Source: a bacterium BMS3Abin14
Lineage (GTDB): Bacteria; BMS3Abin14
Reading direction: 5' to 3'
NCBI GenBank assembly: GCA_002897695.1
Contig: BDTG01000043.1
Location: 7,934 to 71,933 of the forward strand
DNA: 64,000 bases
The notes beneath the pieces are model-generated. The model was not told the DNA's origin, did not search any database, and saw only the letters and a list, made by a program, of their open reading frames with translations. Positions 6,995-57,169 of the stretch are shown here, one piece after another. Both the position numbers and the translations under genes were made by a program. Position 1 is the first letter of the stretch; each line of letters begins with the position of its first letter.

Positions 6995-7266
6995 GAGAAA
7001 GTTCAAGGCCCGGAGTCCAGGGTCCAACGGTTACTACAGATCCTTTCGTTTTACAGGGCCGAAAAAATCCATTCATGGTTTTTTTCTTCACCACAACCCC
7101 ACGCGGTGCCGGGTAATTAACAAAAAGTCCAATTATATCGAAAGGTTACGGCTTAACATCCAGCCTGTTTTTCTTGACACCCCATCGGTCGCGTGTTAAC
7201 TCTTAATCGAGATATGGGCAATGGGCAATAAAAGCAAGTTTGGCGTTCGAATTTCAAGGTTGTTTC

Positions 7267-7296
7267 CACTCTGGACTCTGGACTCTGGACTCTCCC
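7267..7296 (-). repeat. (GTCCAGA)3 tandem heptamer repeat, antisense orientation
   Basis: ccactctggactctggactctggactctcc on + strand; followed by a 9-bp GC stem-loop at 7292-7330. Confidence 0.7.
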
Positions 7297-7352: not shown

Positions 7353-10016
7353 ATGCCTGGGTTGAAGATCCTTGTCATTGAGGATGACCAGTTTTTTCAG
7401 CAATATGTCAACGACCTCCTGCAGGATTTTAACGTTGACCTTATTAACGCCATGGATGGCGAGGAAGGGCTTCTCCTTGCCCAATCGGAGAAGCCTGACC
7501 TGATCCTTACCGACATTGAAATTCCTAAAATCCAGGGATTTGTCCTGTTGAACCAGTTAAAGGAGATGCCTCAGACAGCCGATATTCCCGTGGTCCTCAT
7601 GTCCGGGAAGGTGGAAAAGGACCTTCTTGACAAGCATTCACGGCTGAGCGTTCACGCCGAAGGGTACCTCCTGAAGCCTTTTTCCCGGGCTGAGCTCCAC
7701 GGAGAAATCACCAGAGTCATGGGGCCGGATGCCCTGACGGCGGACGGAGTTTCCGGTGATGCTTCCGCAGAAGAATCACTGCCCGTGGCGCCTGCCCCCG
7801 TCTTGCCCCCCACCGCTGAAGGGGCCGGGATTAAGAAACGATCCAGGCCGCTGGTCCTTGTGGTTGATGATTCCTCCTATGTTTTAATCCAGACAAGCGA
7901 TCTCTTAAAGGAAGCCGGGTTGGATGTCGATGTTGCCATGGATGGGGATGCAGGCCTTGCCAAATGCATGGAGATCAGGCCGGACATCGTTCTCCTGGAT
8001 GTGCAGATGCCTTCAAGCAACGGTTTCATCGTCTGTGAGACGCTTAAGAAAAACCCGGACACGAGAACAATTCCAGTAATTCTCATGTCGGCAGTGGTTG
8101 ATACTGATTCATTTGAACGGCATTCCAGGCTGAAATACCATGCCGACGCCTATCTGCAGAAGCCCTTTAAGAGGGCCGAACTGCTGGATCTGATTTTCGG
8201 GCACCTTGCGATGGATCCATCGTCGGACGGAGTGCAGAGCAGGACCGGTTTTCTTTTTCAGGATGAAAACAGATTGCCGGTGGAACAGTCGGAAAGGGAA
8301 ACCCGGTTGGCTGTCAGGCTCGCCGAAATTGAAGGCAAACTTAATGAGGCGGCTGAATTGCTGGAATCGCACCGATCCCGGGAGGAGGCTTTCCAAAAGG
8401 AGATCGATAATCTTCGGAAGGATAATGATCAGTTTGCCGAGGAACGGAAAGAAGAACTTCGCCAATGGGAGGATCGTAGAAGACGGCTTGTTGAAAAAGT
8501 CACAATTGCTTCCAGACGTGCAGAAGAGGCAGTCGGGGAAGCCGAGGAGATCAGGAACAATGGCCTGAAGCTGAAAATGGACATGGAAGCAGCCCTTATG
8601 GCCAAGGCCGAAATAGAGGAACAGGCCAAATCTGTAGTTGAGGGCATGAAGAATAGTCTGGGCGGCGCCGAATCGGATGATGGCCTTGCTCGTCTCGGCA
8701 AGGAGAATATTGAGCTGCGGAGCCGTCTGGCTGAGGCAGGGGCCGGAGCAGCAAGCCTGGTGCGGCTGCAGTCCGATCTGGACCGGGCCAGGGAGGAAAA
8801 CCGTGAGCTCAGGGAGTCCATGTCTTCCATGCCGGACCGCTCGGGCTTGAATGAGGAAATAAAAAACCTCCAGGAGCAACTGAAAGCTGCCAACGCCGGG
8901 ACCACCGCCGGCAACGAGGAGAAACTTGGACTTCAATCCACCATCGATTCACTGCATGCCGAGAAGGGGAAAGCTCGGGAAGAGGAAAAAAAGGCAGCTG
9001 AAAAAATGGCCGAGGCCCTCGATGATTTTAACCGGATCCGGGTGGAGGCTGAGAATTTAAGAGCACAACTGGCCGAGGCTCAGCAATTGGCCCTTCAGAC
9101 GGAGACACTGGAGAAAGAGCTGGATTCCCTGAGAACGACGGCAGGGGAAGCCAAGGGGTTGCGGGACCTCAATGGAAAATTGCGTGCTGAACTGGAAGGG
9201 CTAAAGCAATCCTGCGCGGCCCTTTCCGAAAGCCTGGAGCACGAACGCGAGAAAATGTCCATTGCTCAGAAAGAGGCCGAATTTGCCCGAAAGGAGTTGG
9301 AAGGTGCGCAGGAGGAAAGAAAACGTTCTGCCGGGCTGAAAAGGGATCTTGAGGAGAAGACGAACAGGTTGGAGACATTGCAGGCTCAAAGCCGGATACT
9401 GGAAAAGGAAAATCATCTTTTGCAGGAGCGCCTCCAGGCCGGAATTCAATCGGGCGGCGTTTCGCTTCAGGCGGGGCAGGCCAACCCTCAGGAGGAACTC
9501 CTTTCCAGCCGGTTAAGCCAGTTGGAGCAGGTCCTGAGGCGAACCGTAGGTGATGCCCAAGCTGTTCTCATGGATCAACAGGGTAAGGAGAAGGGGCTTG
9601 AGGAGAAGATAAACACCCTTGTGAATACCCTTGAGGCTGAACGGAAAGAGCATGGAAAAGAAAGGGAGGAATGGCGTTCCCGTGAAGTCGACCTCAAAAA
9701 TAGCATGGAGGAATTTTTTGATGAGCGCAGCAGACGGATGGGGGAGGAATTGTCACGGCTTTACCCCATTCCCGTCGCAAGGGCGCAGCGCCCCCTTGAG
9801 GTAGTTCGTCCGGGCCGCCGATTTGGATCTTTTGCCCTCATTGGCCTGCTTTTGCTGATAGCCATTCTCCTGGGCTACCTGGTGATCTCACGATTACCGG
9901 AGAAAAAACTCCCCGCCGGCCAGGGGAGGCTTCAGGGACAGACTATGATATTACCACATGGCCCAGGGCGGCCCGACCCCGGCCAGGGCATAATACAGCA
10001 ACCCGTCAATTGTTGA
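7353..10016 (+). CDS. Tandem response-regulator receiver (REC-REC) protein with ~550-aa coiled coil and C-terminal transmembrane anchor
   Basis: Two CheY-like domains each with a phospho-acceptor Asp (LILTDIEIP; IVLLDVQMP) and K (LLKPF / LQKPF). Residues ~295-830 are heptad-rich, E/K/R/L/A-rich. C-terminal hydrophobic FGSFALIGLLLLIAILLGYLVI. Confidence 0.85.
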   Translation: MPGLKILVIEDDQFFQQYVNDLLQDFNVDLINAMDGEEGLLLAQSEKPDLILTDIEIPKIQGFVLLNQLKEMPQTADIPVVLMSGKVEKDLLDKHSRLSVHAEGYLLKPFSRAELHGEITRVMGPDALTADGVSGDASAEESLPVAPAPVLPPTAEGAGIKKRSRPLVLVVDDSSYVLIQTSDLLKEAGLDVDVAMDGDAGLAKCMEIRPDIVLLDVQMPSSNGFIVCETLKKNPDTRTIPVILMSAVVDTDSFERHSRLKYHADAYLQKPFKRAELLDLIFGHLAMDPSSDGVQSRTGFLFQDENRLPVEQSERETRLAVRLAEIEGKLNEAAELLESHRSREEAFQKEIDNLRKDNDQFAEERKEELRQWEDRRRRLVEKVTIASRRAEEAVGEAEEIRNNGLKLKMDMEAALMAKAEIEEQAKSVVEGMKNSLGGAESDDGLARLGKENIELRSRLAEAGAGAASLVRLQSDLDRAREENRELRESMSSMPDRSGLNEEIKNLQEQLKAANAGTTAGNEEKLGLQSTIDSLHAEKGKAREEEKKAAEKMAEALDDFNRIRVEAENLRAQLAEAQQLALQTETLEKELDSLRTTAGEAKGLRDLNGKLRAELEGLKQSCAALSESLEHEREKMSIAQKEAEFARKELEGAQEERKRSAGLKRDLEEKTNRLETLQAQSRILEKENHLLQERLQAGIQSGGVSLQAGQANPQEELLSSRLSQLEQVLRRTVGDAQAVLMDQQGKEKGLEEKINTLVNTLEAERKEHGKEREEWRSREVDLKNSMEEFFDERSRRMGEELSRLYPIPVARAQRPLEVVRPGRRFGSFALIGLLLLIAILLGYLVISRLPEKKLPAGQGRLQGQTMILPHGPGRPDPGQGIIQQPVNC

Positions 10017-10143
10017 TGATTTTGCAAAAAGTCATCGATAATCTCCCTCTCGCTCTCTATGGGAGAGGGTCAGGGTGAGGGCTTGGAACCGGGTGGATTT
10101 ACCAGGGACTTTTAACGAGTCCATCAACACGTCGAGGTTATCG

Positions 10144-11955
10144 ATGGACAGGATTCAGGACCTGCTCAGTCAGGTAAGGAAAAATCCTAATCGCCCCGAC
10201 CTTCACAGCAGCCTTGGGAGGCTGTATCTTCAGAGGGGCGACAGGGTTGCTGCATCGAAACACTTTCTTTCCTCTGCAAGGCTCTTCGCCGACAGGAGAA
10301 GTCCATCCCGAAACATCAACAAGGCTGTGGCATCCCTGAGAAAATTGATCCGCGATTTTCCCGAAAATCATGACTCGTATTATCTGCTGGCTGATCTTCA
10401 TCTGGAAATGGAAGATACGGAATCGGCCATCGTTATTTATCGTTCCCTCGCCGATATATACCAGAGGGACGGAAAGCTCCTCATGGCTGTTTCGGTATAC
10501 GACAAGATAACCAACTCCGATCCTGAAAATATGGATGGGTGGATAAAGTTTGCGGACCTGAATAAAGAGGCGGGTATGCCCTTCCACTCATCACATTCCT
10601 ATATGCGGGCTGCGTTCCTGAGCTCCGGCATGGGCAGATCGTCCGAGGAGTACGATCTTGCCCTGAGAGCGCTTAAGGTGGACCCGGAAAACAAGCCCGC
10701 GCTTGAGTTGATAGGCCGCCTCATAAAAGAGGGCAATGGGGCAAAACATGATATGGAAGAATTGGTTTCCCTGTCAAGGGAACTGGACAGAGATGGCCAT
10801 TCGGAGCAGGCTCTGACCCTCATTTCTATGCTGGAAAGCGCTTCCGGGGAGCAACGATTTGCCGTCATGGCCGCACAGATGCGTGAGAGGTTGGGCAAGG
10901 ATGGAACACCGGAGACGGAAATTGCCCATCGTAATAAATCATTTTCAGGCAAGTACTCCGGCATGAAGGTTCTCATTGTCGATGATGAGAGGGAAATCAT
11001 TCTTCTGCTTGAACAGATACTCAAGGAGGAGGGATTTCAGGTTCTGATGGCCAGGGATGGTCAACAGGGATACGACATTTTCATGCGTGAAAGGCCTCGT
11101 CTGGTGGTCTCGGATGCGATGTTGCCCAAACTGCACGGCTTTGAACTGTGCAAGAGAATAAAGGAGGAAGCCGGCGAGTCCACAAGGGTGATGATCCTGA
11201 CTGCGGTGTACAAGAAGTACAAATACAAGGGCAAGGTAGAGAAAGAATATGGCGTTGATGAGTATCTGGACAAACCTTTCCAGATCACGGAGTTTATTGA
11301 CACCCTGTATCGAATGGCCAAGGCGGTATCCGGCAAGCCGGACATGAAAAATGCTGCCCTCGATAATGGGAAAAATTCGGCCGAAGGTCTTTTTTTCCTG
11401 ATTGCAGGGGATAATGAGGAGCTTCTTTCCGAGGTCTCGTCCTTTTGCGACCGGAAAGGCTGTGCGTTCAAGGCTGTTCGGGATGCAAAGTCCATGATCT
11501 CTTTCCTCGAGGGAGTAGTGCCGGACATCCTGCTGGTGACCGATCAGCTGCGTGATCTGGCGCCCCCCGCAGCTGCCTGGCTGGTTGAAAGGGTGTTGGG
11601 TATTCGATCTGCCACGAGGGTGTTCATCACAGGAAGCGCCATTCCCGGGGAACGGGACTCCTCCGACTTTCATCACACTGTTTCGGCGCCCGTTAATTTT
11701 GAAACTCTCAATGCAATCGTCCGGTTGCACAGAGGTGCCGATGCCCGTACCGGCCTGAGGGGAAAAGAGAAAAAAATCGGGGTAGACGGAAGACGGATGG
11801 AGGCATTGATCAGGAGCAAGGTCGAGAGGGTATTGAAGAGCCAATATCAGCTGGAACACTACTACACCGGAAAGATCCAGAAGCTGGAGGATGAACTCGG
11901 GGCTATCAAGGCCAGGGGCAAAGGGAAAGACACGGCCAGGGGAAACGGCCAATGA
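10144..11955 (+). CDS. TPR-repeat protein with central receiver (REC) domain and C-terminal degenerate receiver-like domain
   Basis: TPR-like N-terminal half. REC block KVLIVDDEREII…VVSDAMLPKLHGFELC…YLDKPF. Alternative GTG start at 10075 directly after the upstream terminator hairpin; ATG at 10144 preferred. Confidence 0.75.
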   Translation: MDRIQDLLSQVRKNPNRPDLHSSLGRLYLQRGDRVAASKHFLSSARLFADRRSPSRNINKAVASLRKLIRDFPENHDSYYLLADLHLEMEDTESAIVIYRSLADIYQRDGKLLMAVSVYDKITNSDPENMDGWIKFADLNKEAGMPFHSSHSYMRAAFLSSGMGRSSEEYDLALRALKVDPENKPALELIGRLIKEGNGAKHDMEELVSLSRELDRDGHSEQALTLISMLESASGEQRFAVMAAQMRERLGKDGTPETEIAHRNKSFSGKYSGMKVLIVDDEREIILLLEQILKEEGFQVLMARDGQQGYDIFMRERPRLVVSDAMLPKLHGFELCKRIKEEAGESTRVMILTAVYKKYKYKGKVEKEYGVDEYLDKPFQITEFIDTLYRMAKAVSGKPDMKNAALDNGKNSAEGLFFLIAGDNEELLSEVSSFCDRKGCAFKAVRDAKSMISFLEGVVPDILLVTDQLRDLAPPAAAWLVERVLGIRSATRVFITGSAIPGERDSSDFHHTVSAPVNFETLNAIVRLHRGADARTGLRGKEKKIGVDGRRMEALIRSKVERVLKSQYQLEHYYTGKIQKLEDELGAIKARGKGKDTARGNGQ

Positions 11956-16161: not shown

Positions 16162-16194
16162 AGTCCAGAGTCCAGAGTCCAGAGGGAGAAAGAG
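16162..16194 (+). repeat. (GTCCAGA)3 tandem heptamer repeat immediately downstream of the spoT stop
   Basis: agtccagagtccagagtccagagggagaaagag, 8 nt after the stop codon. Confidence 0.75.
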
Positions 16195-35463: not shown

Positions 35464-35493
35464 AGTCCAGAGTCCAGAGAGAAGAAAGGCGGA
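35464..35493 (+). repeat. (GTCCAGA)2 heptamer repeat in the glyQ-glyS spacer
   Basis: cagtccagagtccagagagaag; a degenerate copy gtccaacgtccagcgg lies at 35439-35454. Confidence 0.65.
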
Positions 35494-42215: not shown

Positions 42216-43169
42216 ATGAATGATCGGGTGCTCGTTACCGGCGGTGGGGGGTTCATCGGATCGCACCTGGTCCGTGGGCTCCTGTCTGAGGGTTACAGGG
42301 TATCCGTGCTCGATAACTTCATGACAGGACACAGGAAAAACCTCCAGGAAGTTGCGGGCGATATCGAAGCCGTCTGGGAATCGGACGTAAGGGACCTTCA
42401 ATCCTGTCTGAAAGCCGTGAAGGGCGTCACCGCCGTGTTCCATCTCGCGGCCCTCGCCTCGGTTTCGGGAAGCATTGAGGAACCGATCCTCTCCCATGAG
42501 ATAAACCTCACCGGCACCCTGAACATGCTTCAGGCCGCACGGAAAAATAGCGTTCAGGGATTCATCTTTTCCTCATCCGCGGCTGTTTACGGGGATGGTC
42601 CCGCCATGCCGAAAAAAGAGAACATGAAACCTGATCCGATGTCCCCTTATGCACTTCACAAGCTTGCCGGGGAATACTACTGCAGGCAATATTCAGCTCT
42701 TTTCGGTCTAAAGACAGCATCCCTGAGATACTTTAACGTATTCGGCGCCCGGCAGGACCCTGAAAGTCAGTACGCCGCCGCGGTTCCCATTTTCATGTCG
42801 GCCATCCTGAAGGACGAACCGGTCCATATCTACGGGGATGGGGAGCAAACCAGGGACTTTGTCTACGTCGGGGACGTGGTACGGGCCAATCTTCAGGCCC
42901 TCAGGTCCGAGGGGCTCAACGGACAGGTGATGAACATCGCCGGTGGAGAGAAGGTCACTATTAACGGGCTCCTGAAGGCTCTCGAAGCCGTCTCGGGCGT
43001 ATCGGCCGAAAAGGTGTACTCCGATCCACGGCCAGGTGACATAAGACACTCCAGGGCTGATATTTCAGCGGCTTCCGCCCATATCGGCTACAAACCGGCA
43101 GTTGGTCTCGAGGATGGTTTACGCAGGACCTTTCAATGGTTCCGCAAGGCCCGGTGGGCCGGGCAATGA
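42216..43169 (+). CDS. NAD-dependent epimerase, UDP-GlcNAc(A) C4-epimerase-like (WbpP/TviC family)
   Basis: GGGGFIGS Rossmann motif, YxxxK catalytic motif (YALHK); paired with the WbpO-like gene. Confidence 0.8.
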   Translation: MNDRVLVTGGGGFIGSHLVRGLLSEGYRVSVLDNFMTGHRKNLQEVAGDIEAVWESDVRDLQSCLKAVKGVTAVFHLAALASVSGSIEEPILSHEINLTGTLNMLQAARKNSVQGFIFSSSAAVYGDGPAMPKKENMKPDPMSPYALHKLAGEYYCRQYSALFGLKTASLRYFNVFGARQDPESQYAAAVPIFMSAILKDEPVHIYGDGEQTRDFVYVGDVVRANLQALRSEGLNGQVMNIAGGEKVTINGLLKALEAVSGVSAEKVYSDPRPGDIRHSRADISAASAHIGYKPAVGLEDGLRRTFQWFRKARWAGQ

Positions 43170-44275
43170 TCTCCCGCGACGGTTTCGCGCTGAAAGTCCT
43201 GAAGCACATGAAGAGCGCGCTCGTCGTCATTGACAGGGAGGGAAGTGTGCTTGTCCTGAACCGGTCTGCAAGAAAAATCCTCTCCCTCGGCAACGAGGAC
43301 ATCGCAATAGGGAAAAGCTGCAGAGATGTCTTTGCGGCCTACCCGTATCTTTCGGATCTGCTCATGACCTCCTTCGACATCCACACTCTGCCGGATCGAG
43401 CCGAGCTGGAATTGAAGGGGCGGCCTGCCGGAGACCGGAAGGTTGTAGGGTACACCCTTTCCCCGGTTTACGGGGACGATGGTGAACGGCTGGGAACGGC
43501 CCTGTTCTTCAAGGATCTTACTGAGGTTGAACGCCAGGAAACGAAGGAACGGATCAGGGATCGCCTTGTATCCCTGGGTGAGATGGCTGCCTGGCTCGCG
43601 CATGAGATACGCAACCCTCTTGCCGCCATCGAGGTATCCGCCGGCCTCCTTTTGAAGGATGAGAAGGATCCATCACGCACGGAATCCGTACGGGATATCC
43701 TTTCGGAAGTTAAAAGGCTCAATACGATTATTACCCAGACCCTGGATTTCGTCCGATCCAGGCCTTTGAACCTGCAGTACTGTGATCTCAACGCGGTGCT
43801 CACCGACACCCTGAATGAATGCCTCCAGGGCAGGAATGACATCGAAATTTCGCTCACATTGAACGATATCGGCCCCGTGCTCCTTGACACACCCCAGATC
43901 TCCCATGCGCTGGGAAACATCATTGTCAACTCCTGTGAGGCGATGCCCGATGGAGGTACATTGAGCGTGTCCATATACACAGTGCCTTCGGAAGCGGGAG
44001 GTCAGGTTCCCGAAACTTTCACGAATCATGTCGTACGGGAAATGGAGAACATCGTGGTGGAGATAGCCGATACGGGTGTCGGAATCCCGGAGGATGTGAT
44101 CGGCAAGGTCTTCACCCCTTTCTTTACTACAAAAAACGGTGGAACGGGGATCGGCATGTCCCTTGCCCAGAAAGTGGTTACGGAGCACTGGGGTATTCTG
44201 GACATTGAAAGCGCCTATGGAAAAGGGACCAAATTCAAGGTTATACTACCCAAATTCACATCTGTGGAGGGTTAG
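43166..44275 (+). CDS. Sensor histidine kinase (PAS - HisKA - HATPase_c), cytoplasmic
   Basis: H-box AHEIRNPL, N/G1/G2 boxes (…NSCEAM…, DTGVGI, GGTGIGMS). Start overlaps the epimerase stop (ATGA). Confidence 0.8.
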   Translation: MISRDGFALKVLKHMKSALVVIDREGSVLVLNRSARKILSLGNEDIAIGKSCRDVFAAYPYLSDLLMTSFDIHTLPDRAELELKGRPAGDRKVVGYTLSPVYGDDGERLGTALFFKDLTEVERQETKERIRDRLVSLGEMAAWLAHEIRNPLAAIEVSAGLLLKDEKDPSRTESVRDILSEVKRLNTIITQTLDFVRSRPLNLQYCDLNAVLTDTLNECLQGRNDIEISLTLNDIGPVLLDTPQISHALGNIIVNSCEAMPDGGTLSVSIYTVPSEAGGQVPETFTNHVVREMENIVVEIADTGVGIPEDVIGKVFTPFFTTKNGGTGIGMSLAQKVVTEHWGILDIESAYGKGTKFKVILPKFTSVEG

Positions 44276-44299
44276 ACAGCATTACAACAGGAGATTTGA

Positions 44300-45671
44300 C
44301 GTGGGCAGGTTTCTGATAGTGGAAGACCAGGCGGTGCTTCGCAAGGGCATCGTCAAGGTGTTTATTGCCGATGGTCACAATGTGGACGAGGCGGCAGATG
44401 GTGAGACAGCACTTCAATTGCTGTCCCGGTGGAATTACGATGTGGTGATCACGGACCTTAAACTTCCCGGGATCAGCGGGATGGAGGTCCTGAAGCATTC
44501 GAAGGCCAACGCTCCGGCCACCGACGTGTTGATCATGACCGCCTACGGGACCATCGAAACAGCCATCGAGGCCATGAAACTTGGGGCCTTTGATTTCCTG
44601 CAGAAGCCGTTCGGCATACCGGAGCTGGAAATGCGCGTTGAAAAGGCTCTGCAGCAGAGAATGCTGAAAAACGAGGTGGATTATCTGCGTCATGAGAGGG
44701 ATATCGTCTACAGGATTGAGGACTTTATCGGGGAGAGCCCGGCCATAAAGAAAGTTTACCGCGATGTATCCAGGGTGGCTCCATCCTCAACCAACGTCCT
44801 TATCACCGGTGAGACCGGGACCGGAAAAGAACTTATCGCCGGGGCGATCCATTACAACAGCCCAAGGGCAAAAAACAGCTTTATCAAGGTTAACTGCGCT
44901 GCCATCCCGGAAAACCTTCTTGAGAGCGAGCTGTTCGGCCATGAAAAGGGGGCGTTCACAGGTGCTGTCAACCAGAGAATAGGGCGTTTTGAACAGGCGA
45001 ACGGCGGGAGTATCCTCCTGGACGAGATCGGGGACATGAGCCCCCTTATTCAGGCCAAGATACTCCGTGTGATCCAGGACCGGCAGTTTGAAAGGCTCGG
45101 AGGCAATGCGGTCATTACGTCGGATGTGAGGATCATAGCGGCTACCAACAAGGACCTCGCCAGGGAGATGGAGATAGGTACATTCAGAGAGGATCTGTTT
45201 TACCGTTTGAATGTCGTTCACATCCCTCTTCCCTCCCTCAGGGAACGGCAGGGGGATATCCCCCTGCTCACGGATTTCTTTATCAAGCGCTTTAACGGGG
45301 AATTAAAGAGGGATGTCAAGGGTGTCGGTGAGCAGGCCATGAAGACCATGCTCAGCTACACATGGCCGGGAAACGTCCGGGAGCTGGAAAATGCACTTGA
45401 GCGAGCGGTTCTCATGTCTGACGGTGACTATCTGGATGTGTCGGACATTAATATCTCCGCCCCTGTCATGCCATTCAGGGATGTTCATACCCCCGGCACC
45501 TCCCCGCTCGATCTCAAGGACCTGGAAAAGGAGGCGGTCCTGGAGGCCCTGAGAAAGACTGACTATGTCCAGAAGGACGCCGCAGAGGTCCTCGGAATCT
45601 CAAAGAGGGTCATGCACTACAAAATCCAGCAGTTCGGCATCAAGCATCCCCGATGGATCAAAAACCGATAA
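44300..45671 (+). CDS. Sigma-54-dependent transcriptional regulator, NtrC-type (REC - AAA+ sigma54-activation - Fis HTH)
   Basis: REC with ITDLKLP; Walker [15 protein letters not shown], Walker [20 protein letters not shown]-terminal HTH; GTG start with RBS aggag. Confidence 0.9.
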
Positions 45672-45673
45672 CG

Positions 45674-45716
45674 AAAGTCCAGAGTCGAAAGTCCAGAGTC
45701 CAGAGGGGAAAAGCGG
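45674..45716 (+). repeat. (GTCCAGA) heptamer repeat cluster directly after the stop of EBP1
   Basis: gaaagtccagagtcgaaagtccagagtccagaggggaaaagcggg. Confidence 0.75.
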
Positions 45717-45992
45717 GCAATGCGCTGTAGGCTCTGGGCTATGGGTAAAGAGGTCCAGAAAACAATGTCCAATGACCAGCGATGTCATTGCGAGGAGCAT
45801 CGAGGGAAACGAGAGTGACGGTTTACCACGTCGAAGCCACAGGAGCGAAGACGGGCGGCAATCCAGAAGGCGGAACCTTTATAACATATTGACAACATGA
45901 CTGCCTAAAAGTTATTACAAAATTGAAACATCTCATGGAATTGTGTGCAGAAATCTGTTCTGCCGGGGGGCGAGGGGAGTCGGAAGTTGGCA

Positions 45993-47345
45993 ATGGTGCT
46001 GGTAGTAGAGGATGATCTTGATTTCAGGGAACTTGTGGCTGGAGTTCTGTCGGAAAACGGGTACAGGGTTGACGAGGCGCCTGACGGTGAGACGGCCCTC
46101 CAGCTGATCGGCAATACAAAGTATGACGTCATTATCTGTGACGTAAAGCTCCCGGGGATTTCCGGCATGGATGTGCTCCGGGAGGCCAAATCCCAGTCGC
46201 CAGACACTGAAGTCCTCATAATGACCAGTTACGGATCAGTGGACAGCGCCGTAAAATCCATGAAGATGGGCGGGTTCGATTATCTTCAGAAACCGTTTGG
46301 CCTTGCTGAACTTGAGATGAGGGTAGAAAAGGCGGTTCGCCACAGGATGCTCTGCAATGAGGTCTCCTATCTCAGGCACGAGCGTGACATCATATACCGG
46401 TTTGAGGACATCATCGGAAGGAGCCACTCGACCAGGGAGTTCCTGGAGGAGGCTGAACGCGCTGCGATGGTGGACGGCCCGGTCCTTCTTTACGGAGAGC
46501 CGGGAACCGGTCGAAAACTCATTGCGGGGGCGATCCATTACAACAGCGAACGTCATAGCGGGGGTTTTGTGCGTGTCAACAGCGCCGGCATGCGGGAAAG
46601 ATACCTTGCCGGCGACCTCTTCGGCCACGTACGGGGCGCTTTTGACGGCGCCGGCCGCGCCAGGACCGGGCGTTTCGAACAGGCCAATGACGGCACCATC
46701 CTCCTCGAGGAAATCTCCCATGTTTCCCTTGACAACCAGGACCGTATTCTCGAGTTTCTTGAAACCGGAAAACTCCTTCGGATCGGACACTCGAAGTCCA
46801 TTTCACTTGACGTCCGCCTTATTGTCACATCAAGCACGGACCTTGGAAAGAAGGTGCGCGAAGGGGGGTTCCGCGAGGAACTGTATTCATTGATATCTGC
46901 CACCACCATTCGGGTTCCCCCATTGAGAAGTCGAAAGGAAGACATTCCCCTCCTTGCCGAATATTTTTTGAGATCTCTTCCAAAAGAGCTTATGAAACAG
47001 GATGTTGTCAGTATCTCCTCCTCAGCTTTCGTGAAGCTCACAGAGTATCCATGGCCCGGGAATATCAGGGAATTGAAGAACGTTATCGAACGTTCCGTTC
47101 TGACCGGCACCGGGGAGATAATTGAGGCGTCGGACATCCAGCTGCCCGATGAGAATGTGGCTTCCTCAGGATACTCGGGACTGATTCTGAAAGAAATGGA
47201 GAAAGCCGCCGTTGTGGACGCACTGAGGAGAGCAAACTTCGTTCAGAAGGACGCCGCAAAGATACTGGGCATCACAAAAAGGGTGATGCACTACAAGATC
47301 CAACAGTTCGGGATCAAGCATCCCCGGTGGATTAAGAACAGATAA
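45993..47345 (+). CDS. Paralogous NtrC-type regulator with degenerate AAA+ motifs (putative ATPase-inactive pseudo-EBP)
   Basis: Same architecture and an almost identical C-terminal HTH (VQKDAA…[21 protein letters not shown]). Walker A GEPGTGRKL (K to R), GAFDGA in place of GAFTGA, Walker B ILLEEI (D to E). ORF opens at GTG 45945; ATG 45993 preferred. Confidence 0.8.
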   Translation: MVLVVEDDLDFRELVAGVLSENGYRVDEAPDGETALQLIGNTKYDVIICDVKLPGISGMDVLREAKSQSPDTEVLIMTSYGSVDSAVKSMKMGGFDYLQKPFGLAELEMRVEKAVRHRMLCNEVSYLRHERDIIYRFEDIIGRSHSTREFLEEAERAAMVDGPVLLYGEPGTGRKLIAGAIHYNSERHSGGFVRVNSAGMRERYLAGDLFGHVRGAFDGAGRARTGRFEQANDGTILLEEISHVSLDNQDRILEFLETGKLLRIGHSKSISLDVRLIVTSSTDLGKKVREGGFREELYSLISATTIRVPPLRSRKEDIPLLAEYFLRSLPKELMKQDVVSISSSAFVKLTEYPWPGNIRELKNVIERSVLTGTGEIIEASDIQLPDENVASSGYSGLILKEMEKAAVVDALRRANFVQKDAAKILGITKRVMHYKIQQFGIKHPRWIKNR

Positions 47346-47347
47346 AG

Positions 47348-47380
47348 AAAGTCCAGAACTGTTCTTCCCCTCTGGACTCT
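47348..47380 (+). repeat. GTCCAGA-derived hairpin directly after the stop of EBP2
   Basis: aaagtccagaactgttcttcccctctggactct forms an 8-bp stem AGTCCAGA/TCTGGACT. Confidence 0.7.
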
Positions 47381-47396
47381 TAATCAGGAGGTTAAA

Positions 47397-57081: not shown

Positions 57082-57169
57082 ATCCAGAGTCCAAGGCCTT
57101 CCGCGGTGTAGCCCGAAGGACGAAGACGGGTCCAGAGTCCAAAGAATAGGGGGGCCGAATTTCGGCCCC
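57082..57169 (+). repeat. Two TCCAGAGTCCAA units separated by a GC stem, followed by a perfect hairpin GGGGCCGAA-TTTCGGCCCC
   Basis: Seen directly in the livK-livH spacer, beginning 10 nt after the stop codon. Confidence 0.7.

Follow-up and report, generated by a model that had tools for sequence, protein, structure and literature searches.

The question raised by this locus is how a response regulator could act when its receiver domains are joined to neither a DNA-binding nor an enzymatic domain. Response regulators with protein positioning as their output are few and are well studied in models only, namely the Myxococcus proteins FrzS, AglZ and RomR, and the Caulobacter proteins DivK and PleD, which act around PodJ and PopZ. 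In the 64,000-nucleotide stretch analyzed here (contig BDTG01000043.1, positions 7,934 to 71,933; hereafter the window), two neighboring plus-strand genes, which we call A and B, encode proteins of this kind: protein A carries two receivers, a long coiled-coil rod and a C-terminal transmembrane (TM) helix, and the soluble protein B carries a tetratricopeptide repeat (TPR) superhelix, a receiver, a degenerate receiver-like domain and a terminal helix (Table 1). We are highly confident of this anatomy; that the two proteins make up a lineage-specific, phosphorylation-gated and membrane-tethered scaffold with its adaptor is a possibility, argued by analogy, that we favor but hold tentatively. Exact-sequence look-ups matched A to GBE15714.1 and B to GBE15715.1, both on a 176-kb contig of the uncultured bacterium BMS3Abin14, the bin from which the candidate phylum of that name took its name. 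BMS3Abin14 is also the phylum name in the Genome Taxonomy Database (Candidatus Hudomiota); its 12 genomes measure 1.5-2.9 Mb and come from hydrothermal, sub-seafloor and freshwater environments (PMC11382960).

Pfam recognized Response_reg (PF00072) twice in A (148 bits vs. a cut-off of 30.2; E 1.4e-43, with residues 168-281 as the best stretch) and NCBIfam placed receiver matches at residues 5-122 and 168-281, confirming, together with the active-site residues, the two intact CheY-like receivers proposed in an earlier reading of this DNA made from its letters and open reading frames (ORFs) (hereafter the sequence-only reading). Across 25 A homologues with 28-78% identity, the active-site residues are at least 90% conserved in the first receiver and invariant in the second; those in the receiver of B are likewise conserved among 28 aligned homologues. 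Taking the three intact receivers together, the 25-28 homologues (35-83% identity) show little or no variation at the phospho-acceptor and switch positions, and because of this conservation we regard the domains as being used as receivers. The best PDB matches to the second receiver of A are RpaA, PleD D1, MtrA and FrzS, all at about E 1e-16 (FrzS E 1e-15).

In GenBank, A is labelled "DNA-binding response regulator MtrA" and B "PhoP". The NCBIfam MtrA profile scored 102.7 bits vs. an equivalog cut-off of 300 and the PhoB profile 119.7 vs. 296, i.e. about one third of the cut-off, with both matches confined to the receiver part of the profiles, and neither Pfam nor NCBIfam revealed a C-terminal winged-helix DNA-binding domain in A or B. 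Judged by these profiles, both labels are mislabels, and as names of DNA-binding regulators they should not spread further. Beyond the receivers in A and the TPR and receiver in B, no enzymatic or other domain was found in Pfam, NCBIfam and PDB sequence searches, in agreement with the sequence-only reading, which had seen no DNA-binding or enzymatic output in either protein.

The region of A that follows the second receiver is rich in heptads. Over residues ~305-805, with a high content of Glu, Leu, Ala and Arg, our own heptad score averaged 0.246 vs. 0.121 +/- 0.014 for shuffled sequences, with Gly/Pro-containing breaks at residues ~431-449, 463-465, 494-498, 512-526 and 697-712. Because these breaks interrupt the heptad signal, the rod, as predicted from this pattern, is segmented and ~500 residues long; the long coiled coil claimed earlier therefore stands as a heptad-rich rod, but not its description as continuous over ~550 residues. 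PDB matches to the middle region were all weak coiled coils (keratin 5 coil 2B at E ~1e-3, tetherin and the Rad50 coil). No enzymatic or SMC domain was found in this region by Pfam and PDB searches, and no SMC head, ATPase or other catalytic domain flanking the coil was found in A by Pfam, NCBIfam and PDB searches. The spacer between the second receiver and the juxtamembrane module measures 447 residues in the window protein, 321-705 residues among relatives and ~900 residues in a 1491-residue homologue (locus L045), and such variation in length would fit a spacer or scaffold; the filament-like character proposed earlier is putative.

Between the rod and the TM helix lies a helical juxtamembrane module which, together with the TM helix, forms a block of 133 residues without any indel in 25 aligned relatives (one has 132 residues). 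A profile of this block, searched against 1.84 billion cluster representatives, yielded 16 matches, 14 of them at E < 1e-30; the other two, at ~E 8e-6, are the single-receiver paralogue P0245 described below and a fragment. In PDB, the block gave a weak match to the tetherin coiled coil and nothing else. The TM helix itself, GSFALIGLLLLIAILLGYLVISR, reaches a Kyte-Doolittle 19-residue mean of 2.99 at residues 827-845, is preceded by five Arg within 15 residues, and is kept in all full-length relatives of A, where it ends in a G-[YF]-[LF] motif. An amphipathic helix was considered for residues 825-847 and ruled out; because mean Eisenberg hydrophobicity is 0.71 and the hydrophobic moment just 0.10, we assign these residues to a TM helix, in support of the single C-terminal TM segment with a tail of ~40 residues that had been proposed. 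Protein A is a single-pass inner-membrane protein, and since receivers take phosphate from cytoplasmic donors, we place its N-terminus in the cytoplasm.

What follows the TM helix differs among relatives. Short forms of A (~770-880 residues) end in tails of 36-66 residues that are not conserved, whereas long forms (~1040-1380 residues; ~35 relatives) carry a conserved C-terminal extension of 212-236 residues, with a mean column identity of 70% and 40 invariant columns. This extension is predicted to be a beta-sandwich; a fold search matched only uncharacterized immunoglobulin (Ig)-like lipoproteins and no enzyme, and neither a Pfam match nor a PDB sequence-profile match was obtained for it. 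The groups of relatives that have short forms differ widely from one another in sequence. By this comparison, the window protein is a truncated derivative that has a short tail in place of the periplasmic beta-sandwich of its ancestors, and the periplasmic domain is dispensable. The earlier description of A as tail-anchored applies to the window protein, which resembles tail-anchored proteins in having a single TM helix near the C-terminus (residues 825-847 of 887) and a 40-residue tail, but this is not a family trait, since most relatives carry the predicted beta-sandwich domain of 215-235 residues after the TM helix. No literature on tail-anchored coiled-coil response regulators was found, and a census-type literature search yielded nothing specific either.

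Protein B had been described as 626 residues, which corresponds to an ORF from an alternative GTG start (10075..11955, plus strand). Because the Met at 10144 is the start in 28 of 28 aligned homologues and a GAGG Shine-Dalgarno sequence lies 7 nt 5' of this ATG, the start of gene B is most likely at 10144, giving 603 residues. In the 626-residue numbering, Pfam placed TPR at residues 40-160 and Response_reg at 299-410 (86.8 bits, E 1.4e-24); the AlphaFold2 (AF2) model, built from a 28-sequence alignment with a mean predicted local distance difference test (pLDDT) score of 83, uses the 603-residue numbering, which is followed below. Foldseek matched the TPR part to the TPR domains of OGT and SPY, and two motifs within it, GKxLMAVSV and AGMPFHAAQA, are strongly conserved. 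The model shows a disordered linker between the TPR superhelix and the receiver, and the receiver contains an invariant insert, TAVYKKYKYK.

The domain at residues 417-530 of B adopts the receiver strand order in the AF2 model and keeps the PD..L...D motif; Ala replaces the Lys, and the acidic pair and helix alpha-4 are missing. Foldseek aligned this domain together with the preceding receiver to the D1-D2 tandem of PleD (1w25_A, 2v0n_A and 9g85; 280-297 columns, E 2e-10 to 1e-8), and a family profile of the domain matched solved receivers in register (E 0.003-0.02). An hhalign comparison with the receiver of B itself was weak (E 1.4e-3, probability 17%); because of this weakness in sequence comparison, we base the call on the AF2 model together with the alignment to PleD, and these support a degenerate receiver. 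The earlier assignment of TPR, receiver and degenerate receiver to B stood in Pfam, AF2 and the PleD alignment, although its length did not. Past this domain, the modeled C-terminal helix is probably a dimerizing coiled coil; no GGDEF output was found in B by Pfam or NCBIfam, the C-terminus being a single helix. The receiver of B belongs to a subtype, recognizable by its AMLPK.HGFELC motif and by a Tyr/Lys-rich insertion ahead of beta-5, that recurs in proteins P0193-P0213 at ~40-44% identity. These include uncharacterized proteins of other architectures, namely receiver-linker-TM-TonB_C proteins of Aminicenantes-type metagenome-assembled genomes (MAGs) and the T2SSE_N(MshEN)-receiver-TPR protein P0207; in P0193 and P0196, the two receiver-TonB_C proteins read, Glu replaces the phospho-Asp.

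Searches with full-length A yielded ~50 homologues, all from metagenomes or MAGs and labelled "bacterium" or "Deltaproteobacteria bacterium", and outside this MAG family only generic receiver matches in hybrid kinases. The B family comprises ~70 homologues of ~600 residues at 37-83% identity. Related loci were fetched via the B alignment and exact look-ups. In every such locus with enough upstream DNA, A lies immediately 5' of B; in several of them, the two genes are separated by 14-32 nt or overlap by 4 nt. Contigs of matching length in the A and B homologue tables show further co-occurrence. The locus order is rplM-rpsI-argC-[small ORF]-A-[117-aa TPR ORF]-B-[DUF4416]-yicC-gmk-rpoZ-relA, with the 117-residue TPR ORF found in one subclade only; in the window, rplM, rpsI and argC lie upstream, yicC, gmk, rpoZ, relA/spoT and recG lie downstream, and there is no DUF4416 gene, which in most relatives stands between B and yicC. 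Judged by gene order, A and B form a conserved unit, which bears out the pairing suggested before; the related loci read have the pair in the same conserved place on the chromosome, in a candidate phylum known only from metagenomes. The 117-residue TPR protein is not a copy of the TPR part of B, and Pfam gave nothing useful for the small ORFs of relatives (131-136 and ~290-300 residues upstream of A, and the 117-residue TPR ORF).

Locus L045 (GCA_040961635.1, 3497-11272) holds a 1491-residue long-form A, then the 510-residue P0245 and then a B homologue. P0245 is a paralogue of the receiver-coil-TM type with a single receiver; it keeps the AAL.AK.E.EDQA motif and overlaps the B homologue by 4 nt. 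In locus L049 (10609-12380), the B homologue was called as two ORFs, a 272-residue TPR part and a 318-residue receiver part, which may reflect a frameshift or a genuine splitting of the gene.

Among known systems, FrzS and AglZ share with A a CheY-like domain at the N-terminus and a long coiled coil after it, without enzymatic or DNA-binding output. FrzS has been described as combining a pseudo-receiver with a degenerate DNA-binding domain and a coiled coil, and the description includes no membrane segment (PMC9811614); the FrzS receiver lacks the phosphorylatable Asp (PMC1974792) and docks onto TPR9-11 of SgmX (PMC9811614), so that FrzS-SgmX resembles A-B in having a TPR protein as functional partner. 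However, FrzS and AglZ have one pseudo-receiver whereas A has two canonical receivers with Asp (PMC1974792; PMC9811614), and they have been described without a membrane anchor, FrzS moving from pole to pole, whereas A has a TM helix and, ancestrally, a periplasmic domain; SgmX, unlike B, has no receiver. In addition, the FrzS receiver is no more similar to A than those of RpaA, PleD and MtrA, the coils of FrzS and AglZ are not detectably homologous to that of A, and no MglA, SgmX, type IV pilus or gliding genes were seen in the annotated parts of the window. By these comparisons, A falls outside the FrzS/AglZ group; the likeness drawn in the sequence-only reading, which had already set the TM anchor apart, is architectural only, with no specific sequence relation and with the phospho-Asp kept in A.

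PodJ of Caulobacter crescentus resembles the long form of A in that N-terminal cytoplasmic coils are joined through a single TM anchor to a C-terminal periplasmic domain, in place of which the window protein keeps a tail only; PodJ scaffolds two-component proteins and has a natural short form without the periplasmic part (PMC8980812), as does the A family. PodJ differs in having no receivers and in its periplasmic part, made of TPR and peptidoglycan-binding segments vs. the Ig-like beta-sandwich of the A family; its short form arises by proteolysis, whereas that of A arose by gene truncation in evolution, and no sequence similarity between A and PodJ was detected. For B, the counterpart is PleD of Caulobacter (receiver, degenerate receiver, GGDEF), which likewise has a phosphorylatable receiver in tandem with a degenerate receiver that acts as adaptor, but B lacks the GGDEF domain and adds the N-terminal 250-residue TPR superhelix and the C-terminal helix. 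We found no earlier description of the A-B domain architecture, which resembles both protein-interaction response regulators and single-pass coiled-coil scaffolds.

Based on these likenesses, we postulate that an unlinked kinase, either an orphan histidine kinase or CheA, would set the phosphorylation of the three intact receivers, and that the phosphorylation state would control the docking of A, by its receivers or coil motifs, onto the TPR surface of B. The same state may also control dimerization of B via the receiver/pseudo-receiver pair and the terminal helix; PleD dimerizes through its D1/D2 stem. Protein A would probably be a dimeric scaffold, and the output would be recruitment or release of a client at the membrane rather than transcription or catalysis. 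Read this way, A-B would represent a different solution from the model systems, placing two canonical receivers on a membrane-anchored rod with a dedicated TPR-receiver adaptor encoded next door; if the scaffold reading is true, phosphorylation-gated docking of a TPR adaptor to coiled-coil receiver proteins arose independently outside Myxococcota, and there is a handle on cell organization in the BMS3Abin14 phylum. The sequence-only reading had suggested a polarity or scaffold module; the scaffold is what we favor, whereas a polarity role is an analogy and not a result.

Several points weigh against the scaffold-adaptor reading: 1) in locus L005, a complete genome, a long-form A is not followed by B; 2) adjacency of A and B is weaker evidence than usual because the order of the housekeeping genes is also conserved in the lineage; 3) the coiled-coil call comes from a heptad heuristic of our own, not an established predictor, and from weak keratin/tetherin matches; 4) docking between A and B is proposed by analogy; and 5) in the precedent itself, FrzS receivers are non-phosphorylatable docking domains, whereas the receivers of A are canonical. 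A more ambitious version, which we consider doubtful, would make A-B the core of a phylum-specific, envelope-spanning scaffold that couples both sides of the inner membrane and positions a machine for envelope growth, polarity, motility or the stringent response; it would consist jointly of a dimeric rod, switchable receivers at its cytoplasmic tip, an ancestral ligand-binding periplasmic beta-sandwich and the TPR-receiver-pseudo-receiver adaptor. If true, it would define a new class of response regulators with spatial organization as output.

Other explanations put the output elsewhere. Cytoplasmic phosphorylation might be relayed inside-out, via the rod and TM helix, to the beta-sandwich as output domain, with B only tuning the input and the window protein being a decayed or re-purposed version. 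The extracytoplasmic domain is present in most members and well conserved within them, the fixed-length, indel-free juxtamembrane and TM block suits a conformational relay, the A gene of L005 (along with a small TPR gene) follows genes for PBP1A, Amidase_3 and GerM-domain proteins, and the unrelated receiver-TM-TonB_C proteins demonstrate that a connection between a receiver and a periplasmic part is feasible; nevertheless, this domain was lost in widely differing groups of relatives while the cytoplasmic parts and B stay conserved, a rod whose length differs by more than two-fold and whose Gly/Pro breaks are flexible is poorly suited to rigid transmission, and the fold search led to uncharacterized lipoproteins and no enzyme, leaving inside-out signaling, in our view, unlikely. 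We judge it rather more unlikely still that A is a coiled-coil cytoskeletal element, resembling DivIVA or bacterial coiled-coil-rich proteins, whose self-assembly determines cell shape or serves to mark poles or sites of division, with phosphorylation tuning assembly. The long heptad-rich rod, its weak similarity to intermediate-filament coil 2B, the single-copy gene in conserved housekeeping synteny and the cell-wall gene neighbors in L005 would agree with such an element, as would the large periodic structures formed by the FrzS coiled coil in E. coli (PMC9811614). Yet higher-order assembly is conjectural here, the keratin similarity is compositional (E ~1e-3), and the conserved TPR-receiver partner is left unexplained; this view also overlaps with the scaffold rather than excluding it.

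The receivers might instead be the whole function. Tandem or extra CheY-like receivers acting as phosphate sinks are an established theme, and A-B, with three intact receivers and no outputs, could serve as a sink or phosphorelay in a chemosensory or multi-step pathway, where the role of the coil and TM helix would be to place the receivers at the membrane beside a kinase array; in L003, a complete che operon ends 455 nt upstream of A. This adjacency was met in one locus only, other loci having argC in that place, and the promoter-like block of A is kept in L003; neither CheA nor Hpt occurs within the 64-kb window, and a sink has no need for a 500-residue rod with motifs, a juxtamembrane module and a TPR partner, for which reasons we hold this explanation to be quite improbable. 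The genes downstream offer the last alternative, that A-B regulate the YicC, Gmk, RpoZ or RelA proteins of the stringent-response/translation block, as might be read from the overlap of the B stop with the yicC start, the lack of a terminator-like site between A and relA, and the A-B-(DUF4416)-yicC-gmk-rpoZ-relA order in all long loci. The gmk-rpoZ-spoT/relA block, however, occurs in many bacteria without A-B, co-transcription does not imply a physical link, and Pfam and NCBIfam detected no nucleotide- or RelA-binding module in A or B; a regulatory role of this kind seems very improbable indeed.

Table 1. Features of the A-B locus and its surroundings in window coordinates, unless a related locus is named (REC, receiver; aa, amino acids).
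Feature	Position	Strand	Basis and remarks
Gene A	7353..10016	+	887 aa; REC-REC-coiled coil-TM; ORF, exact look-up, ~50 homologues
A receiver 1 (aa 5-122)	7365..7718	+	Pfam, NCBIfam; E10-D11-D12, D54, S84, K108
A inter-receiver linker (aa 123-167), Pro/Ala/Glu-rich	7719..7853	+	Length and sequence variable in alignment; no heptad signal
A receiver 2 (aa 168-281)	7854..8195	+	Pfam; D172-D173, D216, S246, K270
A segmented coiled-coil rod, predicted (aa ~305-715)	8265..9497	+	Heptad score vs. shuffles, Gly/Pro breaks, weak PDB keratin-type match
Rod motif AAL.AK.EIE.QAK (aa 413-426)	8589..8630	+	Family-invariant A413, A414, A417, K418, E420, E422, Q424
A juxtamembrane helical module (aa 716-824)	9498..9824	+	With TM, 133-aa indel-free block
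A TM helix (aa 825-847)	9825..9893	+	Hydrophobicity, conservation
A extracytoplasmic tail (40 aa, Pro/Gly/Gln-rich) and stop codon	9894..10016	+	In place of long-form beta-sandwich domain
A-B spacer, 127 nt	10017..10143	+	Sequence
Gene B	10144..11955	+	603 aa; TPR-REC-pseudoREC-helix; ORF, homologue starts, Shine-Dalgarno, exact look-up
B TPR superhelix (aa 1-250, 14 helices)	10144..10893	+	Pfam TPR; AF2 pLDDT mostly >90
B receiver (aa 275-395)	10966..11328	+	Pfam; (beta-alpha)5 AF2 fold; D280-D281, D324, T353, K377
B degenerate receiver-fold domain (aa 417-530)	11392..11733	+	AF2 pLDDT mostly 80-94; Foldseek
B C-terminal 46-residue helix (aa 547-592)	11782..11919	+	AF2; conserved K559, E571, Y574, LEE pattern
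B stop/yicC start overlap, ATGA	11952..11955	+	Sequence
Promoter-like block: AT-rich stretch, TTGACA, 16-nt spacer, TTAACT	7117..7210	+	Three-way alignment
Heptamer array (TCTGGAC) x3.7	7268..7293	+	Tandem Repeats Finder, period 7, 100% matches
GC-rich stem-loop	7292..7330	+	9-bp outer stem in minimum free energy and centroid folds
Window heptamer arrays	1046-1075, 1237-1259, 7268-7293, 16162-16184, 35464-35479, 45672-45705, 47370-47383, 57083-57144		
Heptamer arrays in relatives	L003 7910-7937 and 18020-18033; L004 559-572		
Related loci with A directly before B			L003, L004, L006-L012, L017-L019, L022, L023, L026, L045-L049

Upstream of A, the promoter-like block is nearly invariant among the window, L003 and L046, with argC (window, L046) or cheD (L003) as the upstream gene. 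A scan for consensus promoters and terminators called no plus-strand site in the A leader; from the three-way alignment, we infer that the block is A's own promoter. The leaders of the window and L003 are 85% identical, including a 14-nt indel in repeat number, vs. just 69% at the third codon positions of the first receiver. The repeat concerned had been reported as an antisense (GTCCAGA)3 array upstream of the gene, and it is indeed present, with four copies in L003 and a degenerate form in L046. However, because the window has such heptamer arrays at nine places between genes, oriented either way and frequently after a yTTyCCC stretch, the array is not specific to gene A; a two-unit probe gave 15 matches in the window vs. 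0.65 expected, and the arrays could be a dispersed repeat or the binding site of a common regulator. Two of them, 170 nt apart at 1048-1257, point away from each other.

The GC stem-loop noted earlier was also recovered; it lies between the heptamer array and the ribosome-binding site and is common to the window and L003 and absent in L046. With a folding z-score of -0.75, the leader is no more stable than shuffled sequences, neither an Rfam match nor a T-run terminator was found in it, and a structured regulatory RNA is not claimed. The spacer between A and B, which measures just 14 nt in L003 vs. 22 nt in L004, holds in the window a palindrome, GATGATTTTGCAAAAAGTCATC (GATGAyTTTTGCAAArGTCATC), at 10015-10036; L003 has one similar palindrome at 7691-7712, upstream of the promoter-like block of A, and the element may be a small insertion or an operator. 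Outside coding sequence, no terminator-like plus-strand site was found between A and relA, and transcription of A-B probably reads through into yicC-gmk-rpoZ-relA.

As for phosphate donors, there is neither a histidine kinase nor CheA near A-B. The che operon of L003 (861-7545), the closest relative with A at 75% identity, is complete, with CheR, a methyl-accepting chemotaxis protein, CheW, CheY, CheA, CheC/X and CheD, and replaces rplM-rpsI-argC; a che-coupled operon was considered and rejected, the adjacency being limited to that one locus, where A retains a promoter-like block of its own. Within the 64 kb there is a single kinase, a soluble PAS-HisKA-HATPase protein at 43136-44275, consistent with the earlier observation that no kinase is adjacent to the pair. 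This PAS kinase is followed by two NtrC-type sigma-54 activators (43136-47345 in all), the group lying between genes for UDP-glucose dehydrogenase and an epimerase, and heptamer arrays follow two of the genes in this segment.

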